Shown here piece by piece: positions 426-35,667 of a stretch of DNA of 64,000 nt (position 1 is the first letter of the stretch; each line of letters starts with the position of its first letter). This DNA comes from Alphaproteobacteria bacterium (GTDB lineage Bacteria; Pseudomonadota; Alphaproteobacteria; CAAHEQ01; UBA3637). The stretch is taken from NCBI GenBank assembly GCA_017559525.1, contig JAFYRI010000012.1, positions 15,164-79,163 on the forward strand, in the 5' to 3' direction. Position numbers and translations under genes: made by a program. Under the pieces are notes generated by a model. That model was not told where the DNA came from. It worked only from the letters and a program-made list of their open reading frames with translations, and did not search any database.

Positions 426-520
426 ATAAAAATCCTTTGTCAGTTATTTTTGTTATTATATATTTTTTTGTTTAAAAGTACAAGAGAAAAAGAATATATT
501 TTTCGATGTCCGAAAAATCA

Positions 521-549
521 TTGACAAAAATAATGCAATATGATATAAT
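521..549 (+). promoter_or_regulatory. sigma70-type promoter (TTGACA-17 nt-TATAAT) upstream of the GNAT array
   Basis: Perfect consensus -35 TTGACA at 521-526 and -10 TATAAT at 544-549 with a 17-nt spacer. It lies inside the first track ORF, which argues for a downstream start at 581. Confidence 0.5.
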
Positions 550-580
550 TTTTCCACTATCTTATGCGAAAGGGAATTTG

Positions 581-1192
581 ATGATTGAAAATTTTGAAAT
601 GCCTTCTGAAATTAAAGGTAAGCGTATTTGTTTAAAGCGTGTAGAGGAAAATGATACAAATGCAATTAAAAAAGTTTGTGATGCAATTTTTAGCGAGGGA
701 ACACTAAAGCGAATTGAAAAAGTAATGGGATATTTTTCTGATGGACCTGATGATATTCCGTCTTTAGTTCGTTCTTTGAATCGTACATTTGAAAAAAATG
801 GTTTTAATTATTTTATTTTTAAAGATGATAAAGTTATTGGTCAAATTAATGGTTTCCCGTGTCAAGGTTATCAACGTTCAGTTGTGACGATTTGGGGATG
901 GATTTCTGATGCAGAAATGCGTAAAGGATATATGAAAGAGGCAATTAAGTTATTGGAAAATGAACATTTTTCAAGAAGTTTAATGTCTTTAGAAATTTCT
1001 GCTTATAATAATTTAGCGGTTCATGCTTTATGTCATTCTTTAAATTTTTATGGCGCGGGTGAAAGAACGCCTTATCAATATTTTTATCGCCATCGCTCTG
1101 ATTGGATGTCAGAACAAATGCCACAACGTATTATTCATCATGATGACATTAGTCAAGCTCATTCTCAGAAACAAAAGGGAGAACGTTCATAG
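581..1192 (+). CDS. GNAT family N-acetyltransferase (RimJ/RimL-like), paralog 1 of 5
   Basis: Shares motifs with the four downstream paralogs (R[IV]xLKR, W[IL]xxxxxGKGYM). Start chosen at MIENF, downstream of the promoter at 521-549. Confidence 0.6.
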   Translation: MIENFEMPSEIKGKRICLKRVEENDTNAIKKVCDAIFSEGTLKRIEKVMGYFSDGPDDIPSLVRSLNRTFEKNGFNYFIFKDDKVIGQINGFPCQGYQRSVVTIWGWISDAEMRKGYMKEAIKLLENEHFSRSLMSLEISAYNNLAVHALCHSLNFYGAGERTPYQYFYRHRSDWMSEQMPQRIIHHDDISQAHSQKQKGERS

Positions 1193-1789
1193 ATGTCTGT
1201 GATGTTCCGATATAATACAAATTGTTGGCCTGACAAACTTGTTGGGCCTCGTGTTGTATTAAAAAGATTGGAGCCAACACAAGAATATGCTGATTTATTT
1301 CACCAAATAATCAGCAATAATACAAAACATTTAACTGATAGTTTTGCTTATTTAGTGCATCAAATTAATTCATCGCAGGCTGCTTTGTCCTTTTTAACAG
1401 CCGCTTATCAAGATTTTCTTTATGAAGCGCGAGATGATTATGGTATTTTTGTCGGAAATGATTTTGTTGGTGCGGTTTTGGTTTGGGGAAAAAGACGCAC
1501 AGATCGTGAAATTATGTATTGGTTAAAAGAAGAAGCTTGTGGTTATGGTTATATGCATGATGCTTTGGATTTAATTGAACAAGAACATGCTAAATGTGCG
1601 CCTCATCATATTTTATTTGCTAATGTTAATGCTAAAGCAAGGGCTTCTGCAGCTTTATTAACAGCACGTGGTTATAATTTGGATGGACTTTTCTTTTTTA
1701 AACGACCAATGTCTAATGAATTGTCTCGAACGGTTATTCAGTCTGCGATGCATTCAATGCCGAAAGATGAGGGGCGAATATATGGATAA
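1193..1789 (+). CDS. GNAT family N-acetyltransferase, paralog 2
   Basis: PRVVLKRLEPTQEYA and YWLKEEACGYGYM motifs. The ATG follows the stop of paralog 1 immediately. Confidence 0.6.
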   Translation: MSVMFRYNTNCWPDKLVGPRVVLKRLEPTQEYADLFHQIISNNTKHLTDSFAYLVHQINSSQAALSFLTAAYQDFLYEARDDYGIFVGNDFVGAVLVWGKRRTDREIMYWLKEEACGYGYMHDALDLIEQEHAKCAPHHILFANVNAKARASAALLTARGYNLDGLFFFKRPMSNELSRTVIQSAMHSMPKDEGRIYG

Positions 1790-2354
1790 AATATTAAGGT
1801 CAAATCGTATTCGCTTAGAAATTTTGTCACCATTGCCGGAATATGCCGAACAATTGTCTGAAATTATTTGTCGTAACCGAGATCATTTAGACATGTGGCG
1901 AGGTGATGTTTTAAAATATGAAACATCCGAGTTATCGTTTTATAAATTGTTAATGGATAATTACTATTATGAACGTAAAGAAGGATATTTTTATCATATT
2001 TTTAAAGGTAAAAAAATTATTGGCCATATCAGTTTGTTGTCTTCTGGTAAATTTTGGGAAACATCTTATTGGTTAGATAAAGAATATACAGGACAAGGGT
2101 ATATGCGAGAGGCTTTAAAAACCTTGGAAAATGCTTGGTTTCAAAAAAGTACAGCGCCTATTACTGTTCTTATAAATCCCGAAAATACACCTTCTTTGAA
2201 AGTTATTCATAAAATGGGATATACTTTGTTTGGGCAGAACAGATATTTGAAAAATTTTGCTATGTTTATGAGGGAACAAAATGTACATCAACCATCATTA
2301 ATTATGTCAGCAAATCAACAAATTTTTACACAAAATCAACATGAGAAGGATTAA
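1782..2354 (+). CDS. GNAT family N-acetyltransferase, paralog 3
   Basis: Start at MDKILRSNRIRLEIL overlaps the stop of paralog 2 by 8 nt (translational coupling). YWLDKEYTGQGYM motif. Confidence 0.6.
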   Translation: MDKILRSNRIRLEILSPLPEYAEQLSEIICRNRDHLDMWRGDVLKYETSELSFYKLLMDNYYYERKEGYFYHIFKGKKIIGHISLLSSGKFWETSYWLDKEYTGQGYMREALKTLENAWFQKSTAPITVLINPENTPSLKVIHKMGYTLFGQNRYLKNFAMFMREQNVHQPSLIMSANQQIFTQNQHEKD

Positions 2355-2356
2355 AG

Positions 2357-2923
2357 ATGATACCATATCCAACCGTAATAGAAGGAACTCGTATTGTGTT
2401 GAAAATGTTATCTCCAACACCGACAAACGCACAAATGGTTTGTGATTTGGTGAAAAAAAATACAATGTATTTATATCCTTTTTTGAAAGAAGTGGTAACT
2501 GATGGTAAAGATGTATTAAATGCCTTACATCACTTGCGTCGGGCTGATAATTTATGTCGAGAAGATGATACGGCATTGTATTATATTTTTCATCAAGGAA
2601 AAATGGTTGGCGCAATTGAGGCTTTGATGTATCCTCATGAACGGGAGTTGCGTTTTTGGTTGGATCATGATGCAAAAGGTAAAGGATTGATGCGTGAAGC
2701 TGTTTTATTGATGGAAAAGATGTTATTTGAACGTAATCAAGATAGAATTATTTTAGGAATTTTAGATAGCAATACGCCATCACTTAAACTTGCAAAGCGA
2801 TTAGGATATACTGAAGATTGGGAAGGTTATTTCGAAATAACATATGATAAATTTCATATGTTAAGAAAAAATAATTCAAGAAAAAGTTTAACTAATTTAT
2901 ATGATCGAACAAATGGTAGATAA
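2357..2923 (+). CDS. GNAT family N-acetyltransferase, paralog 4
   Basis: TRIVLKMLSPTPTNA and FWLDHDAKGKGLM motifs. Confidence 0.6.
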   Translation: MIPYPTVIEGTRIVLKMLSPTPTNAQMVCDLVKKNTMYLYPFLKEVVTDGKDVLNALHHLRRADNLCREDDTALYYIFHQGKMVGAIEALMYPHERELRFWLDHDAKGKGLMREAVLLMEKMLFERNQDRIILGILDSNTPSLKLAKRLGYTEDWEGYFEITYDKFHMLRKNNSRKSLTNLYDRTNGR

Positions 2924-2935
2924 AGGAAGTATATA

Positions 2936-3517
2936 ATGTATCCTAGTAGAATTATAGGACGAAATATTGAGTTGAAAATTTTACCGGCAACTGAGGAAAA
3001 TGCTGAAAAGGTTTATTATGTTATTCAAAATAATAAAGAATATTTGTCTCAATTTTTTCAACGATTGGTTTCAGCTTTTGATAATAAAAAACAGGCATTA
3101 GATATTTTAAAATTTGATGAAGAACAAAGATGGCTTAATAATTCTGTAAATTATTATATTTTTTCAAAGAATCAGTTGATTGGTGAGATTGCTGCCGATT
3201 GGTCTAGGCAAAATAGTAGAGCTTCTATTATTTATTGGCTGGATAAATCTCATGTTGGAAAAGGATATATGTCTCAAGCTTTGAAAATGATGGAAAAGAA
3301 CCTGTTTTTAAATGGGTATTCTGAAACGCGTTTGTATATTGATGCTGCCAATTGGCGTTCTGTAAATGTTGCAAAATACAATTACTATCAATTAAGTGAT
3401 GATGGTAATTATTATTTTAAAACACGTCAAATGTATAATAATCCTCGTCAACCAATATGCCATAAACAAGATTATATTGGACGTTTTTGTCGTTTGTTTC
3501 GGACGCGAAATAGATAA
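2936..3517 (+). CDS. GNAT family N-acetyltransferase, paralog 5
   Basis: RNIELKILPATEENA and YWLDKSHVGKGYM motifs. Confidence 0.6.
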   Translation: MYPSRIIGRNIELKILPATEENAEKVYYVIQNNKEYLSQFFQRLVSAFDNKKQALDILKFDEEQRWLNNSVNYYIFSKNQLIGEIAADWSRQNSRASIIYWLDKSHVGKGYMSQALKMMEKNLFLNGYSETRLYIDAANWRSVNVAKYNYYQLSDDGNYYFKTRQMYNNPRQPICHKQDYIGRFCRLFRTRNR

Positions 3518-19794: not shown

Positions 19795-20475
19795 TTATTG
19801 TGGAGTACATGTATAACATTGGGAACCATATTCGGTTTTTGAGCCTGTTATTGCAGTATGTCCGGATGGACAATTTTTGACTTCACTTGATGGACATTCA
19901 TCATTTAAACAAACAGCACAAATGACGCCACATGCTCTAATACCTGTATCTTTTTGAACTTCGGTTGCGGAGCAATCTGGATTAATGCTGCCACTTGTGC
20001 ATCGTTCGGTGCAAGCATAATCTGTGATATTTTCAAAATTTGAATCTTGTTTTAAATCATTTGCGAATACAAAGGTTAATGTTGTTTTATCTAGGCAATT
20101 AGTAATTTTGTTTAGTCGTGTATTATTTTGATAGATTCCACTAATGATGGGGGGAGTATTAGATACCAAATTTTGACATACACTTTTATCAATATTTTTA
20201 ACTTTTAAACTAAAATAATTTGATGGATTAGGAGGAAAAGTTTCTACTGTAATTGAGGTATTTGTTAATTCAAATAAATTTGCATTTTTTCCGGTTAACA
20301 GTTGTTGAGATACAGTTGTTGCTAATATATTTAATTCATTGATTAAATTGTTTGTTTTGTGCTGTGTCATTGCATAGGAATATCCAGCAATTGCACTGAT
20401 TGACAAAACACCTATAATCGCTAATACACCTAACATTTCTGTCATAGAACGACCAAGTTGATTTATATTTTTCAT
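19795..20475 (-). CDS. type IV pilin-like protein (class III signal peptide) with a Cys-rich C-terminal domain
   Basis: N-terminus QLG/RSMTEMLGVLAIIGVLS...Y aligns with the prepilin consensus (G-1, E+5, AIIG at 11-14, Y24). C-terminal 75 aa contain 12 Cys. Confidence 0.6.
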   Translation of the reverse strand: MKNINQLGRSMTEMLGVLAIIGVLSISAIAGYSYAMTQHKTNNLINELNILATTVSQQLLTGKNANLFELTNTSITVETFPPNPSNYFSLKVKNIDKSVCQNLVSNTPPIISGIYQNNTRLNKITNCLDKTTLTFVFANDLKQDSNFENITDYACTERCTSGSINPDCSATEVQKDTGIRACGVICAVCLNDECPSSEVKNCPSGHTAITGSKTEYGSQCYTCTPQ

Positions 20476-30155: not shown

Positions 30156-30893
30156 ATGACTATGCAAAAGAAAATTTTTACCCCTGAAGAATTGGCTGTT
30201 ATTAACGATATTTTTGGGGTGCAACTTAATTTTGAAACACCAGTTGTTAGTGCAATATTTAAACTCAAAATGGATAGTTATTCAGATGAGAAGTGGGATA
30301 GAGCAATGGCAATATTGCATCCCGTTTTACCACTTGATGAAAGTATTATAAATGGTGAGAGTATATATAAACCATTTTATCAAGATGAAGAGAATTTATC
30401 TAAATCCGCTTCTATTTATGTTGCATTAAAAGAATATCAAGCTGATTTGAAACGTCCTAAGGCTCCATCTGATTTATATTTTTATGGTTCTTTAAGTAAT
30501 AAAGAAGCACACATGGAACAATTGAATAAATTTTTTAACACAGTTCGTTTTTCAACGGAGGCTACAGGACCATTTTGGTATGCTTTAGAGGTTGCAATTC
30601 CAGAAACAGAAACTAGAGGATATGAATTACTTTCACAATATATTTCGCCTCGTCGTATGCAAATTGATAAACCAATGTGGGTAGAGGCCGATAATACAGA
30701 AAATTATAGAATGGGTTCGATTGTATGCTATGATTTTGGATCCGATAAAGATTATACATTTTTTAAAAAAATTGCCGCCGATTTAGAATATTATCAAAAA
30801 CGTAAAGCTGAACATGAAAATCCATTGTTAAAGTGGGAGCCTAAGCGTATTTTGGCTTATGGTGCAAAAATGGAAAAACAACATACGCGATAA
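30156..30893 (+). CDS. hypothetical protein
   Basis: Start at MTMQKK after RBS AAGGAG. No family recognised. Confidence 0.4.
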   Translation: MTMQKKIFTPEELAVINDIFGVQLNFETPVVSAIFKLKMDSYSDEKWDRAMAILHPVLPLDESIINGESIYKPFYQDEENLSKSASIYVALKEYQADLKRPKAPSDLYFYGSLSNKEAHMEQLNKFFNTVRFSTEATGPFWYALEVAIPETETRGYELLSQYISPRRMQIDKPMWVEADNTENYRMGSIVCYDFGSDKDYTFFKKIAADLEYYQKRKAEHENPLLKWEPKRILAYGAKMEKQHTR

Positions 30894-30926
30894 AAACAGC
30901 CCCTCATCCGAGGGGCTGTTTTTTAG
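30893..30926. terminator. rho-independent terminator containing the palindrome AGCCCCTCATCCGAGGGGCT
   Basis: Perfect hairpin flanked by an A-run and a T-run. The same palindrome recurs at 32204-32223 and 60592-60617. Confidence 0.6.
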
Positions 30927-31033
30927 TTTGTTATTAAAAAATTAACTTTTTTGTGCGATATTAAAATAAAAATATATCTATCCCCAATCATCCATTCGGG
31001 CGATAGACAAAATTGATGTAAAGGAGTAAAAAA

Positions 31034-32194
31034 ATGAATTTTAAAATAGAAACCGGTCGTTCTATGGTTGAAATGTTAGGCGTTTTAGCCATTATCGGTG
31101 TACTATCTATCGGAGGTATCACAGGTTATTCTTATGGAATGGATAAATACCGTGCCAATCAAACAATTAATGATATTATGCTCAGAGCTGTAGACTTAAT
31201 GACACAAGCCAGTCAAGGACGAGACGCATTATCATTAGATGAATGGATTAATGAACCTTTTGTCTATGATTTTTCTAATCCGGCATATTCTGATGATGAT
31301 CTTGGACTTATTATGTTTGATGTGGGAGCCAACAACAAAATTTCTCAACGAGTTTGCGAAATGGTTTATGATGGATTATCTAATTCCGTAATTCAAATAG
31401 ATATTAATGAACAAGTCTCTAACTCTAAAAATGATTGTGCCTCAGACAATACGATGACTTTTTACTTCGAAGGTGGTCGTGTTAATGAACAAGGTGAGTT
31501 AATTTGTGAACCTGCATGTGGTGAAGGGGAACAGTGTGCAAATGGTTTTTGTTTTAGAGAGGATATCCCTGTCGTAACTAAAATGTATGGTAACAATTGC
31601 TCTAGTGATGCCGATTGCGGAGGCTGTGGAGATTGCCTTTATAACGGACAATGTATGCCTACTAGGGAAGGAGTTGATTGTCCTTTAGACAATGGACAAA
31701 CTGGACAATGTAATAATGGACAATGTTTGGCTAAAGAGGGATGTTCAGATAAAAATCCTTGTCAATCAAGTGGAACATATTGTGCCAGTCCGAATTCCAG
31801 TTGTTCTGTTGCCTTTAATGAAAATGAAACGGGGATTTGTATACAACCCGATTTTGTGACACAAAAAGTTAATGGTAAAGTATATTATGTTTCAAATGGA
31901 CGTTTATCATGGTGGGATGCAAAATCTGCCTGTGAAATAATCAATAGAGAAATGATTAGCGTGAATGATGTGGTTGTTGGATGGAATCAAACTGCCTCTA
32001 ATTCTTTTGAACGAACAGAATTAGGATTGGCTTTAAATTCTATTATAGGGCACGGTATTTATGTGTGGATGGAAGAAAAAGATGATTGTTATGCATGGAC
32101 TTTTACTCCTAATGATTGGGGAAATTATGATATTTCGAGTAAAGTTAAAAATAGAGCAACAGACGCCATACACTATATTGCAGTATGTAAATAG
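31034..32194 (+). CDS. type IV pilin-like protein fused to Cys-rich (EGF-like) modules and a C-terminal C-type-lectin-like domain
   Basis: N-terminus ETG/RSMVEMLGVLAIIGVLSIGGITGYSY. Middle carries many C..C..C spacings (CEPACGEGEQCANGFC, CNNGQC). C-terminus WWDAKSAC...YVWMEE...CYAW...AVCK resembles a CTLD. Confidence 0.55.
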   Translation: MNFKIETGRSMVEMLGVLAIIGVLSIGGITGYSYGMDKYRANQTINDIMLRAVDLMTQASQGRDALSLDEWINEPFVYDFSNPAYSDDDLGLIMFDVGANNKISQRVCEMVYDGLSNSVIQIDINEQVSNSKNDCASDNTMTFYFEGGRVNEQGELICEPACGEGEQCANGFCFREDIPVVTKMYGNNCSSDADCGGCGDCLYNGQCMPTREGVDCPLDNGQTGQCNNGQCLAKEGCSDKNPCQSSGTYCASPNSSCSVAFNENETGICIQPDFVTQKVNGKVYYVSNGRLSWWDAKSACEIINREMISVNDVVVGWNQTASNSFERTELGLALNSIIGHGIYVWMEEKDDCYAWTFTPNDWGNYDISSKVKNRATDAIHYIAVCK

Positions 32195-32201
32195 TATAAA
32201 T

Positions 32202-32230
32202 TTAGCCCCTCATCCGAGGGGCTTTTTTAT
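32202..32230 (+). terminator. rho-independent terminator (AGCCCCTCATCCGAGGGGCT palindrome)
   Basis: Hairpin plus T6 immediately after the pilin-lectin gene. Confidence 0.6.
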
Positions 32231-33466: not shown

Positions 33467-34540
33467 TTAACGACCTCTATTTCTGCGACGATTGGAAGAG
33501 AGGGAACGTCTTTTTTTGCTAGAACCTTTTTTTGTATTTTTAGCTTTTGGCTTTTCTTTAACAATAGGTTTTCCATCTTTATCTATATTAAACATTTTTT
33601 GAAGTTCTTCTGGATATCCACCTGTTTCACGTTTTTTTAATTTAAATCCAGGCATGCTTCTTGGGGGACCAGAACGATATTTTAAGTTGTAAATATTAGC
33701 CCCAACCATGTATAATTCATTGACAACATTTTGTATTGTTATATTGTCGTTATTAGCTTGGGCCGTTGCTAGTTGTGTTAATAGTAATTTTGTTTTATGA
33801 CGTTTTACATTTCGTTTGCCATCAGCGCGTTCTTTTGTACTAACTTGTTTAGATAATAAGCTATATTTTTTATTTTTAACAGCTTTTAAAAAATTATGCC
33901 ATTTATTGATAAAGTTGTCTTGTCCAACTTGATATCCGATATCGACACTTAATATTTGAACTCCCCTAGGTTCTTTCATCAAGTCAATGCCTTTTTCAAT
34001 ATAAGCTCGACGATAAATAGTATCAATGACGTCACGAACTTCTGTTAATGCAATGCTGATGCTGTCTTTATATTTCATACCAGCAATTCCCATCGATTTT
34101 CCAAGTTGTTTAGCTGCTTCAAAAGATTTTGGAGATTTTGTTTTAACTGTAGATAGATAAGCGCTAACTTGTTCGGGTGTCATTTTTTCTCCATTTTCAT
34201 AATAAAGAGGAAAACGACTGAAGTCCATGCCATTTGTAGTAGCAATTCCATGGCCGATTGTTAAAACTCCTTTAGAACATATATATGCCCAGGGACAAAA
34301 ACCTTCTGAAATACCACTTACTCCAAGCAACCATGATTTACCTAATTTTTCACGCCAATTTTTATAAGTTTCCGTTTTCATAAACTCTATAACTTCTTCT
34401 TTATTCATAGGTAGAGTTGATTTTGTTTGAGTTATTTTAGCTTTTGATTTTGGTTTTGCTTCAACTTCGGATGTTGTTGCAAATGTTGCAACAGCAAAGC
34501 TAATGGCGGTTAATTGTCGGATTAGTGTTTTTAGACTCAT
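33467..34540 (-). CDS. secreted GH24-like (phage-type) lysozyme with an Arg/Lys-rich C-terminal tail
   Basis: Signal peptide. SEGFCPWAYICSKGVLTIGHG matches the T4/P22 lysozyme E..Y.D..G..TIG.G core, with Cys at the Asp position. The last 35 aa include KKGSSKKRRSLSSNRRRNRGR. Confidence 0.55.
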   Translation of the reverse strand: MSLKTLIRQLTAISFAVATFATTSEVEAKPKSKAKITQTKSTLPMNKEEVIEFMKTETYKNWREKLGKSWLLGVSGISEGFCPWAYICSKGVLTIGHGIATTNGMDFSRFPLYYENGEKMTPEQVSAYLSTVKTKSPKSFEAAKQLGKSMGIAGMKYKDSISIALTEVRDVIDTIYRRAYIEKGIDLMKEPRGVQILSVDIGYQVGQDNFINKWHNFLKAVKNKKYSLLSKQVSTKERADGKRNVKRHKTKLLLTQLATAQANNDNITIQNVVNELYMVGANIYNLKYRSGPPRSMPGFKLKKRETGGYPEELQKMFNIDKDGKPIVKEKPKAKNTKKGSSKKRRSLSSNRRRNRGR

Positions 34541-34692
34541 AAGCATGTCTCCATTTTTTTACTTTCTATTATATATTATATAATAAAAAATCAAAAATGA
34601 CAATTATGTTGTTTTAATATTATGAAAAATAATGGTTTTTGCGATTTTTTATTGCGTAATTTTTTGTTTGTTAGATGAATGTATTACATAGT

Positions 34693-35667
34693 CTAACCAC
34701 GTCTACCACGGCGTTTCCTTCTTGGATTTATCGGACGATTATTATTTCGTGGATTTTTCTTGATAGAAGGAGTAGGTGTTGTTTTTGGTCTGTAATCAAT
34801 ATTAGCTGCAATAAATATGTCTTTATACAAATCAGATGCATCAAATTTGATATTAAATTTTCCTAATGTTGCTAAGTGTGCAGAAGTATCTGTTCCTTTT
34901 TTGCAAGAGTTTGCTAAGTGAACTAATGATCTTTTTACAGTATTGCGAGATTTATTAGGGCAACATACAACATATCTATGTGCATTTTCATAATCTTTGT
35001 TTTTTAAACATTTCCATAAGGCAGCATTTCTGAAAACACCATCTTGTCCACGTTGATATGTTAAATCCAAAATCAACATTTGAATAGGGAGAGGTTGGTC
35101 AAATAATTCCATGCCATGTTTACTCAACATTTTATCATGAACTAAATCAACTTTTAATTTAGCTTCTTTGTGTGCTAAATGTTCTGCATCTGCATGAGAA
35201 ATACCTCGATATCCTAATTCATTAGCTAAACGACGACATTCTGATTTGTTTTTTCCTGCAGTTTTATTCATCCAGCTTTTTATTTCTGAAACTGTTAATC
35301 GTCTGCCACTTTTTGTGTATAGAGGCATATCATATAAAGGAATGCTACAGGCAACCATATTTGTGCCAATCCCTACAGTTGGTTTTCCAGCAGAACATCT
35401 GTAGATATAAGGAAAGTATCCTTCTGATAACTCACACATAGGCATCCATGCATTTAACAGACGTGTTCTGAGAAGGTTATATTCAGATGTTTTCTTAAAG
35501 TCAGGTGTGCCACGTAAGTTAGAATCCATTTTAGGTGCATTTGGATGATTTGCCACACTTTGTGTTGATGAAAATACAGGAACATTATCCTCTTGTGTTG
35601 TTGCATTACATGCAATGTTAAAAAATACTGAGCTTAAGATAGCTAAATGTTGTAATGTTTTATTCAT
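34693..35667 (-). CDS. secreted GH24-like lysozyme paralog with an Arg-rich C-terminal tail
   Basis: Signal peptide. SEGYFPYIYRCSAGKPTVGIG core, again Cys at the Asp position. Tail NNRPINPRRKRRGRRG. GGGAG RBS. Confidence 0.55.
   Translation of the reverse strand: MNKTLQHLAILSSVFFNIACNATTQEDNVPVFSSTQSVANHPNAPKMDSNLRGTPDFKKTSEYNLLRTRLLNAWMPMCELSEGYFPYIYRCSAGKPTVGIGTNMVACSIPLYDMPLYTKSGRRLTVSEIKSWMNKTAGKNKSECRRLANELGYRGISHADAEHLAHKEAKLKVDLVHDKMLSKHGMELFDQPLPIQMLILDLTYQRGQDGVFRNAALWKCLKNKDYENAHRYVVCCPNKSRNTVKRSLVHLANSCKKGTDTSAHLATLGKFNIKFDASDLYKDIFIAANIDYRPKTTPTPSIKKNPRNNNRPINPRRKRRGRRG

Follow-up and report, generated by a model that had tools for sequence, protein, structure and literature searches.

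A candidate three-part modular pilin of the type IVb class, with a disulfide-rich stalk and a compact C-type-lectin-fold head, from a large protein family of gut Alphaproteobacteria

Among the genes in a stretch of 64,000 nucleotides (nt) of contig JAFYRI010000012.1 (hereafter the window, meaning the whole 64 kb that was analysed), a gene flanked by housekeeping genes encodes a protein of 386 amino acids (aa) composed of a pilin module, a cysteine-rich stalk and a C-terminal head with the C-type-lectin-like domain (CTLD) fold (Table 1). The exact database match to the 386-aa product is "hypothetical protein IKV03_05795", from a metagenome-assembled genome (MAG) labelled Alphaproteobacteria bacterium, and a homolog search in 5.8 billion protein clusters returned 3046 relatives at a threshold of E <= 1e-3. 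The open reading frame (ORF) is therefore regarded as a genuine gene and not a chance ORF. A preliminary description of the same DNA, made from the sequence alone, had suggested a pilin with EGF-like modules and a lectin tip. We propose to read the product as a modular type IVb pilin in three parts, a carrier, a spacer and a ligand-binding head, and assign this reading a probability of about 0.62.

Table 1. Coordinates (window positions) of the candidate modular pilin gene, its parts, the adjoining signals and the other family members in the window
Feature	Position	Strand	Remarks
ORF for candidate modular pilin, stop codon included	31034..32194	+	intact, 386 aa
Leader peptide MNFKIETG, 8 residues, predicted	31034..31057	+	predicted cleavage after G8 by prepilin peptidase
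Mature N-terminus (R+1, E+5) and long alpha1 helix, residues 9-60	31058..31213	+	AF2 helix 12-60
Globular pilin head, residues 61-150	31214..31483	+	invariant pair C108/C135
Disulfide-rich stalk, residues 155-265, small beta-hairpin modules	31496..31828	+	17 Cys
Compact CTLD-fold module without calcium site, residues 266-386	31829..32191	+	C269, C300 and C385 (near-)invariant
Ribosome-binding site AAGGAG	31021..31026	+	7 nt 5' of the ATG, read from the sequence
Terminator-like hairpin closing the upstream gene	30892..30923	+	20-nt core AGCCCCTCATCCGAGGGGCT
Intrinsic-terminator-like hairpin and T-run closing the pilin gene	32204..32229	+	20-nt core as in the upstream hairpin
Paralog, 370 aa, three-part architecture like the query	60625..61737	-	41% identity over 317 aa, E 5e-69; CTLD-profile match 2e-22
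Third family member, 226 aa, query-like N-terminus and pilin head, 12-Cys tail, no CTLD	19795..20475	-	six-frame motif scan

The N-terminus of the product reads MNFKIETG followed by RSMVEMLGVLAIIGVLS, with Gly at position -1, Glu at position +5 and a hydrophobic alpha1-N segment of about 20 residues that starts directly at the predicted cleavage site. In an alignment of 80 family members, from which all residue conservation figures given here are taken, conservation is at least 90% at G8, R9, S10, M14, L15 and G16 and complete at E13 (the +5 residue). The long N-terminal helix is packed on an antiparallel beta-sheet, as in the pilin fold, and the fold of the head domain is genuinely that of a type IVb pilin; the alpha1 helix (residues 9-60) would form the assembly interface, and C108 and C135 probably pair in a stabilising disulfide in the pilin head. 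An ordinary Sec signal is ruled out by the conservation of G-1 and E+5 together with the pilin fold. The first 50 aa of the short two-Cys pilins encoded in related MAGs are 62-68% identical to those of the query. Profile searches gave sub-threshold matches of the N-terminus to N_methyl and PRK10506, and weak N_methyl matches were seen in 31 of the 80 members (best E 0.038). The conserved Arg at +1 (R9, window 31058-31060), present in at least 90% of the members within the motif GRSM[VIL]E[MI]LG, would make the protein unusual as a substrate of the peptidase and the methyltransferase.

The product contains 22 Cys residues, of which 17 lie within residues 158-257 in a stalk about 110 aa long, shorter than the approximately 150 aa first ascribed to it; the invariant C269 falls just inside the C-terminal head. 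Variable Cys residues of the stalk are gained and lost together among the family members: C162, C173 and C189 co-vary (173 and 189 both present in 55, both absent in 25, discordant in 0), C198 co-occurs with C207, and C257 and C352 are both present in 34, both absent in 34 and discordant in 12. On the alignment, such joint gain and loss would be the pattern expected of disulfide partners or of whole-module insertions. The comparison of this stretch with EGF or defensin modules did not hold up in Pfam, PDB sequence or fold searches. No EGF family in Pfam matched the query or the paralog, a single weak EGF_TEN match (E 0.48) was found among the 80 members, and a stalk-only profile searched against all PDB sequences found no EGF and had the tick salivary protein BSAP1 (E 0.11) as its sole match. 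The other similarities recorded were weak as well, namely Dickkopf_N in 6 of the 80 members (best E 0.016), DUF7107, likewise in 6 of the 80, and a knottin fragment. Since no EGF homology is supported, the stalk is best described as an uncharacterised disulfide-rich spacer. The larger family members with 60-96 Cys, and a 3034-aa relative with 239, probably repeat such stalk units.

Residues 266-386 adopt the CTLD fold, and the earlier assignment of the last 120 aa to this fold was right: sequence profiles, phmmer, and a domain-only model searched with Foldseek all agree on it. The best PDB sequence match was the carbohydrate-recognition domain (CRD) of DC-SIGN, with E values of 0.007 for the full-length family profile and 0.0012 for the C-terminal sub-profile; the match spans beta1-alpha1, where "..YY.SN...SWWDA..AC" is aligned to "CYFMSNSQRNWHDSITAC", and the segment WWDAKSAC, previously picked out as the W..A...C start, does align to the beta1-alpha1 segment of CTLDs. 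When the single 125-aa domain sequence was searched by phmmer against 1.84 billion representative proteins, chiefly family members were returned, together with P0247 (E 1.6e-10), P0265 (E 1.2e-6) and P0293 (E 6.8e-4), in which Pfam finds three, six and three Lectin_C domains, respectively (E 2e-63 to 1e-92). These Lectin_C homologs of the C-terminal domain have no pilin part, and the Pfam scan gave no direct Lectin_C match in the query or the 80 members.

The pilin module and the C-terminal module are predicted as separate high-confidence domains. In the head the secondary structure elements follow the CTLD order beta1, alpha1, alpha2, beta2 to beta5, and the domain-only model has a pLDDT of 88.4 and a pTM of 0.83. 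Its 50 best Foldseek matches were all CTLD or Link-module structures, with TM-scores up to 0.59 and weak E values (0.03-0.4). The closest structural matches recorded for the head include Bd2740, natural killer (NK) cell receptor CTLDs, CD72 and intimin, and the Link modules of TSG-6 and LYVE-1 are among the structural matches as well. C300 in alpha1 is invariant and C385 in the last strand is 99% conserved, both at the positions of the canonical C1-C4 disulfide, and the two residues would form that bond if the alignment is a guide. Within the block YVWM, the Trp at 345 (90% conservation) falls in the strand that follows alpha2, the usual place of the WIGL motif; BLASTP against a Lectin_C protein pairs WIGL with LGLALNSI instead of YVWM.

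The cysteines and loops of the head bear on what it may bind. The canonical disulfide between C2 (beta3) and C3 (after beta4) is absent and only C352 is present. In the family alignment the CTLD disulfide cysteines C300 and C385 are conserved, whereas C352 is found in only 56% of the members and co-varies with C257, which precedes the domain; the "paired Cys near the end" of the preliminary description is not the canonical C2-C3 pair. The predicted strands beta2 and beta3 (residues 343-348 and 353-359) are 4 residues apart, in agreement with the domain-only model, and because of this short gap there is no long-loop region for a calcium/sugar site. EPN/QPD-like triplets were found in 2 of the 80 members and WND-like triplets in 0. 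To judge from alignment and model, the C-terminal domain is a compact CTLD for which calcium-dependent sugar binding is unsupported.

The missing EPN/QPD and WND motifs and the missing long loop speak against a canonical sugar-binding C-type lectin, which was rejected on these grounds; on the same grounds the word "lectin", in the sense of a carbohydrate binder, is not supported for this protein. Of the structural matches, the NK-cell receptor CTLDs, CD72 and intimin are protein-binding, which also counts against a true C-type lectin, that is, a calcium-dependent CRD that places a sugar-binding tip on the pilus. The fold and sequence of the domain are homologous to those of CTLDs, its top matches by sequence, that to DC-SIGN among them, are to sugar-binding CRDs, and pilins with lectin modules are known, e.g. 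PilC of Streptococcus sanguinis (PMC8179133), all of which would suit such a lectin; against it stand the motif counts and the short loop just described, and the presence of the calcium-free Bd2740 among the close structural matches (PMC10769870). We consider a true C-type lectin very unlikely. The domain may bind sugar via a non-canonical site.

Conservation within the domain is lowest over the approximately 35 residues that precede the last Cys, as might be seen if the CTLD were the variable protein of a diversity-generating retroelement (DGR), like Mtd and TvpA, in which a reverse transcriptase would use a template repeat to rewrite the 3' stretch of the gene. Mtd, a phage adhesin, is moreover the sole homologue that has the trimer arrangement of Bd2740 (PMC10769870). 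Within the window a DGR target is all but ruled out, as there is neither template repeat nor reverse transcriptase: when the last 345 nt (3' end) of all three pilin genes were compared with the window by BLAST, no template-like repeat was found, no reverse-transcriptase-like ORF is present within the 64 kb, and the paralogs differ by ordinary divergence along the whole protein. The DGR explanation is accordingly held to be extremely improbable.

The paralog at 60625..61737 to which the preliminary description referred is real (Table 1), and at least three further paralogs carry the locus-tag prefix IKV03 of the exact match. In a scan of one genome per GTDB species, at least 570 family loci were confirmed in species-representative genomes, nearly all of them in MAGs labelled Alphaproteobacteria and several per MAG; the gut sources of these MAGs are roe deer, buffalo, sheep, goat, rabbit and Hadza people. 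Family genes were also seen in a few bins with other labels, namely Gastranaerophilales, Lactobacillales and Butyrivibrio (L023, L060 and L062), which points to mis-binning or to transfer; misplaced alphaproteobacterial contigs are more probable here than real occurrence. A literature search found no paper describing this family.

In 1.1 Mb of related loci, a sample biased towards the query type, 113 ORFs carry the family N-terminal motif. Pilin-like ORFs that extend for 100 to about 1140 residues from the Gly at the predicted cleavage site, with 0 to 96 Cys, have the N-terminus in common. A short class of 114-147 residues on the same count, mostly with two C-terminal Cys, resembles classical major pilins; the other classes are of about 200 aa, of 320-460 aa (many of these ending in "..AVCK" or "..ALCR"), and giants of 600 to about 1140 aa. 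Of the 107 ORFs that reach 100 aa, 31 are matched by a CTLD-module profile, and one of these has two matches. Proteins with several such modules were observed: a 624-residue pilin with two CTLD modules (L028 8567+), a 792-aa pilin with three CTLD-matching segments (P0257), and a protein of 3034 aa with 239 Cys and four CTLD-matching segments, in which the GRSMVEM motif is set back from the N-terminus (P0261). The region upstream of the query gene (window 30950-31036) and the corresponding region of a related locus (L019 9890-9986) share TGCGAT(A/G)TTAAAAT and GACAAAATT..AAAGGAGTAAAAAAATG. The former marks close relatives and not the whole family, because it lies upstream of only 2 of 106 family genes; by the same count for pilin genes (2/106), TGCGATNTTAAAAT is ruled out as a family-wide promoter element.

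With its own ribosome-binding site and a hairpin on either side, the pilin gene looks like a monocistronic unit. The 20-nt core of the two hairpins occurs exactly twice in the 64 kb, at 30898-30917 and 32204-32223, directly flanking the pilin gene, at a chance expectation of none; the pilin gene and its promoter may have been inserted at the terminator, which was then duplicated, or the cassette may have brought its own copy. A 73%-identical ortholog is found beside trpS in another assembly, and since it keeps this position the locus appears stable. No convincing phase-variable inverted repeats were detected around the three pilin genes of the window.

The window has a G+C content of 35% and its other content is housekeeping (gyrA, argS, dnaX, oxaloacetate decarboxylase, trpS and others). 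Two adjacent paralogous ORFs on the minus strand, 33467-34546 (359 aa) and 34693-35667 (324 aa), have signal- or lipoprotein-like N-termini, a common motif "SEG..P..Y.C..G..T.G.G" reminiscent of phage-type lysozymes, and strongly basic tails (..RRRNRGR and ..RRKRRGRRG), and gave no Pfam match. Five successive ORFs of 188-228 aa on the plus strand (506-3517), apparently mutual paralogs with motifs "G.GYM.EA" and "W[LI][DK]", look by eye like tandem GNAT-type acetyltransferases.

In the clade to which the gene belongs, a conserved type IVb machine is encoded on the chromosome, and the pilin genes are scattered. In one related MAG (L019), Pfam identifies a row of genes for TcpQ, Secretin, PAP_PilO, an unassigned protein, a T2SSE ATPase and a T2SSF platform protein; the secretin has a lipoprotein-like N-terminal signal (MLGVMALTSC, read from the sequence), and a family pilin gene, truncated by the contig end, lies about 300 nt downstream of the operon. 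The platform protein has more than 1000 homologs, and the best 120 are 64-100% identical, the named ones being nearly all from Alphaproteobacteria-labelled MAGs. On two long contigs (L080 and L081) the operon is chromosomal, amid enolase, kdsA-type, secG and tpiA-type genes, and no pilin gene or peptidase was found within 10 kb of it. Just upstream of the operon on both contigs there is a 121-aa gene product of the TrbC/VirB2 type, i.e. a type IV secretion pilin (L080 966-1331, minus strand; L081 975-1340, minus strand). In L019 a 36-nt inverted repeat (9766-9801 and 9925-9960, 92% complementary, arms 123 nt apart, each arm palindromic) brackets an AT-rich region just upstream of the post-operon pilin gene; it could be an invertible promoter switch or a pair of hairpin elements. 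Nothing comparable was found upstream of the three pilin genes of the window.

We suggest that the modular pilin would be made and used as follows. The protein would be inserted into the inner membrane, the prepilin peptidase would cut it after G8, its periplasmic part would be oxidised, and the type IVb machine (TcpQ, secretin, PilO, ATPase and platform) would build it into a pilus. The carrier, formed by the prepilin-type signal, alpha1 and the small pilin head, would admit the protein to the filament of the clade's short major pilins; the rigid disulfide-rich stalk would keep the last domain clear of the filament; and the compact calcium-free CTLD would serve as the ligand-binding module of an adhesin. 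Many scattered paralogs with a common carrier and different heads could allow one machine to show an adhesin repertoire. Because of its bulk, the protein is most probably placed at the pilus tip or sparsely along the shaft, a placement also put forward for further modular pilins as well as for CofB and TcpB (PMC8179133).

Several observations weigh against this proposal. The Pfam N_methyl model (PF07963) scores the query at 10.6 bits against a cut-off of 21.2, and NCBIfam TIGR02532 scores the paralog at 12.7 against a cut-off of 16.3; the "canonical" class III signal first described is thus borne out in its Gly(-1)/Glu(+5) spacing, whereas R at +1 and the two sub-threshold scores are not canonical. 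Arg at +1 is not known to us from any characterised pilin. The AF2 model has a pLDDT below 50 over the first 27 residues. Pilus machinery, a prepilin peptidase and a short major pilin were not found in the 64-kb window, as searched by Pfam scans of 19 ORFs (the larger and unannotated ones) and by motif scans, and the A24 peptidase motif was not found in the 1.1 Mb of related loci, which is weak evidence as the search used a crude regular expression.

The same features could be explained if the pilin-like end were an export or anchor device only. The protein would then be cut by a prepilin peptidase but stay anchored in the inner membrane, or be released or displayed as a pseudopilus-type or secreted substrate, and would never enter a long pilus; the place of action of its Cys-rich and CTLD modules would be the periplasm or the cell surface. 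Scattered, monocistronic genes distant from any pilus operon would fit such a role, as would the paralogs, which number dozens in each genome; those that reach about 1100 aa, and one relative of 3034 aa, would make awkward filament subunits. Large expansions of prepilin-signal proteins not known as pilus subunits also occur in other phyla, e.g. the DUF1559 proteins of Planctomycetes, and count in its favour. A mere anchor is at odds, however, with the genuine type IVb pilin fold of the head, with N-terminal 50 aa nearly identical to those of the clade's short pilins, as co-assembly would require, with the family gene directly 3' of the type IVb operon in L019, and with the characterised modular pilins, which are filament subunits (PMC8179133). 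We regard an export or anchor function alone, the main rival reading, as unlikely, while giving it appreciable weight.

A wider version of the modular pilin proposal, in which one conserved chromosomal type IVb machine serves a library of modular pilins, dozens in number, that are spread over the genome and transcribed separately, is tentative and remains somewhat doubtful. If true, the library would extend from classical pilins of about 115-150 aa to proteins of about 1100 aa with up to 96 Cys, all with one carrier module in common and different heads on disulfide-rich stalks, the compact CTLD being one head class. It would represent a hard-wired adhesin repertoire for host mucus, food particles or other microbes, with a function like that of the R64 shufflon or of the MAT fibres of Bdellovibrio. 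To our knowledge, no pilin repertoire of such a size has been known.

What is new here is the type IVb carrier with R at +1 and its layout with a disulfide stalk and a head; how large the family is, and how many paralogs each genome has, within a single gut clade about which little is known; and the fact that the CTLD and the signal both escape current signatures, as a result of which the family is annotated as "hypothetical". If the proteins are pilus subunits, uncultured gut Alphaproteobacteria of ruminants, rabbits and humans would devote a large share of their genes to pilus-displayed binding modules, and attachment would be at the core of this clade's lifestyle. The compact disulfide-stabilised modules might also be of use as binding scaffolds. 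The findings would extend the modular pilin idea to the type IVb class, to a carrier-stalk-head layout and to a bacterial calcium-free CTLD undetected by domain libraries; they do not overturn existing concepts.

For comparison with catalogued pilins, we take IPR001304 to be the C-type lectin-like entry and IPR011460 the Lcl C-terminal/DUF1566 entry of InterPro. Modular pilins are a described class, for which Raynaud et al. (2021, PMC8179133) list 264 architectures and over 1200 proteins, and Dataset S1 of that survey includes IPR012902-IPR001304 (3 proteins) and IPR012902-IPR011460. If our identification of IPR001304 is right, a pilin joined to a CTLD is not new in kind, since it is already catalogued, and the architecture is less unusual than had first been thought. 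In S. sanguinis, PilB consists of a pilin module and a vWA module, and PilC of a pilin module and a ConA-like lectin module (PMC8179133). As in these proteins, an N-terminal pilin module is joined in the present protein to an independently folding C-terminal module of a kind found outside pilus biology; in modular pilins this is a ligand-binding module not specific to pilus biology. The present protein differs in its type IVb class, in its origin from a diderm alphaproteobacterium and in having a disulfide-rich stalk of about 110 aa between carrier and head, and its family has many paralogs per genome, not one or two. A signature-based survey would probably miss the family, since neither the signal nor the CTLD reaches the Pfam or NCBIfam threshold.

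CofB and TcpB are each encoded by a single gene inside a pilus operon, unlike the present genes, which are many and scattered. Both CofB of the CFA/III pilus (colonization factor antigen III) of enterotoxigenic Escherichia coli (ETEC) and TcpB of the toxin-coregulated pilus (TCP) of Vibrio cholerae consist, like the protein described here, of a pilin module, a linker and extra C-terminal domains, and are predicted at the tip (PMC8179133). They form trimers, and their C-terminal parts are a beta-repeat and a beta-sandwich domain, whereas the present C-terminal fold is a CTLD; this, and a monocistronic gene between housekeeping genes, rule out a minor pilin of the CofB/TcpB type. In Bd2740 of Bdellovibrio bacteriovorus, a member of the MAT fibre family, a calcium-free C-type-lectin fold is found at the tip of a bacterial fibre (PMC10769870). 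The carrier of Bd2740 is a trimeric tail-fibre-like protein and not a pilin, and its sequence identity to the present domain is only 9%.

The core CTLD fold without long loop or calcium site is also found in the Link modules of TSG-6 and LYVE-1 and in the C-terminal domains of intimin and invasin, with which no sequence relation is detectable; the C257/C352 pattern of the present domain differs from theirs, and the present domain sits in a pilin. The thin pilus of the IncI1 plasmid R64 has PilS as its major pilin and PilV adhesins that are varied by a shufflon. With R64 the present system has in common that PAP_PilO, secretin, ATPase and platform genes form one operon, that the secretin has a lipoprotein-like N-terminal signal and, as we propose here, that one pilus may carry alternative C-terminal adhesin ends. 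The R64 system is plasmid-borne and serves conjugation, whereas the operon of the related MAGs is chromosomal among housekeeping genes; and where R64 varies one gene by site-specific DNA rearrangement, the variety in the present family lies in many separate genes.

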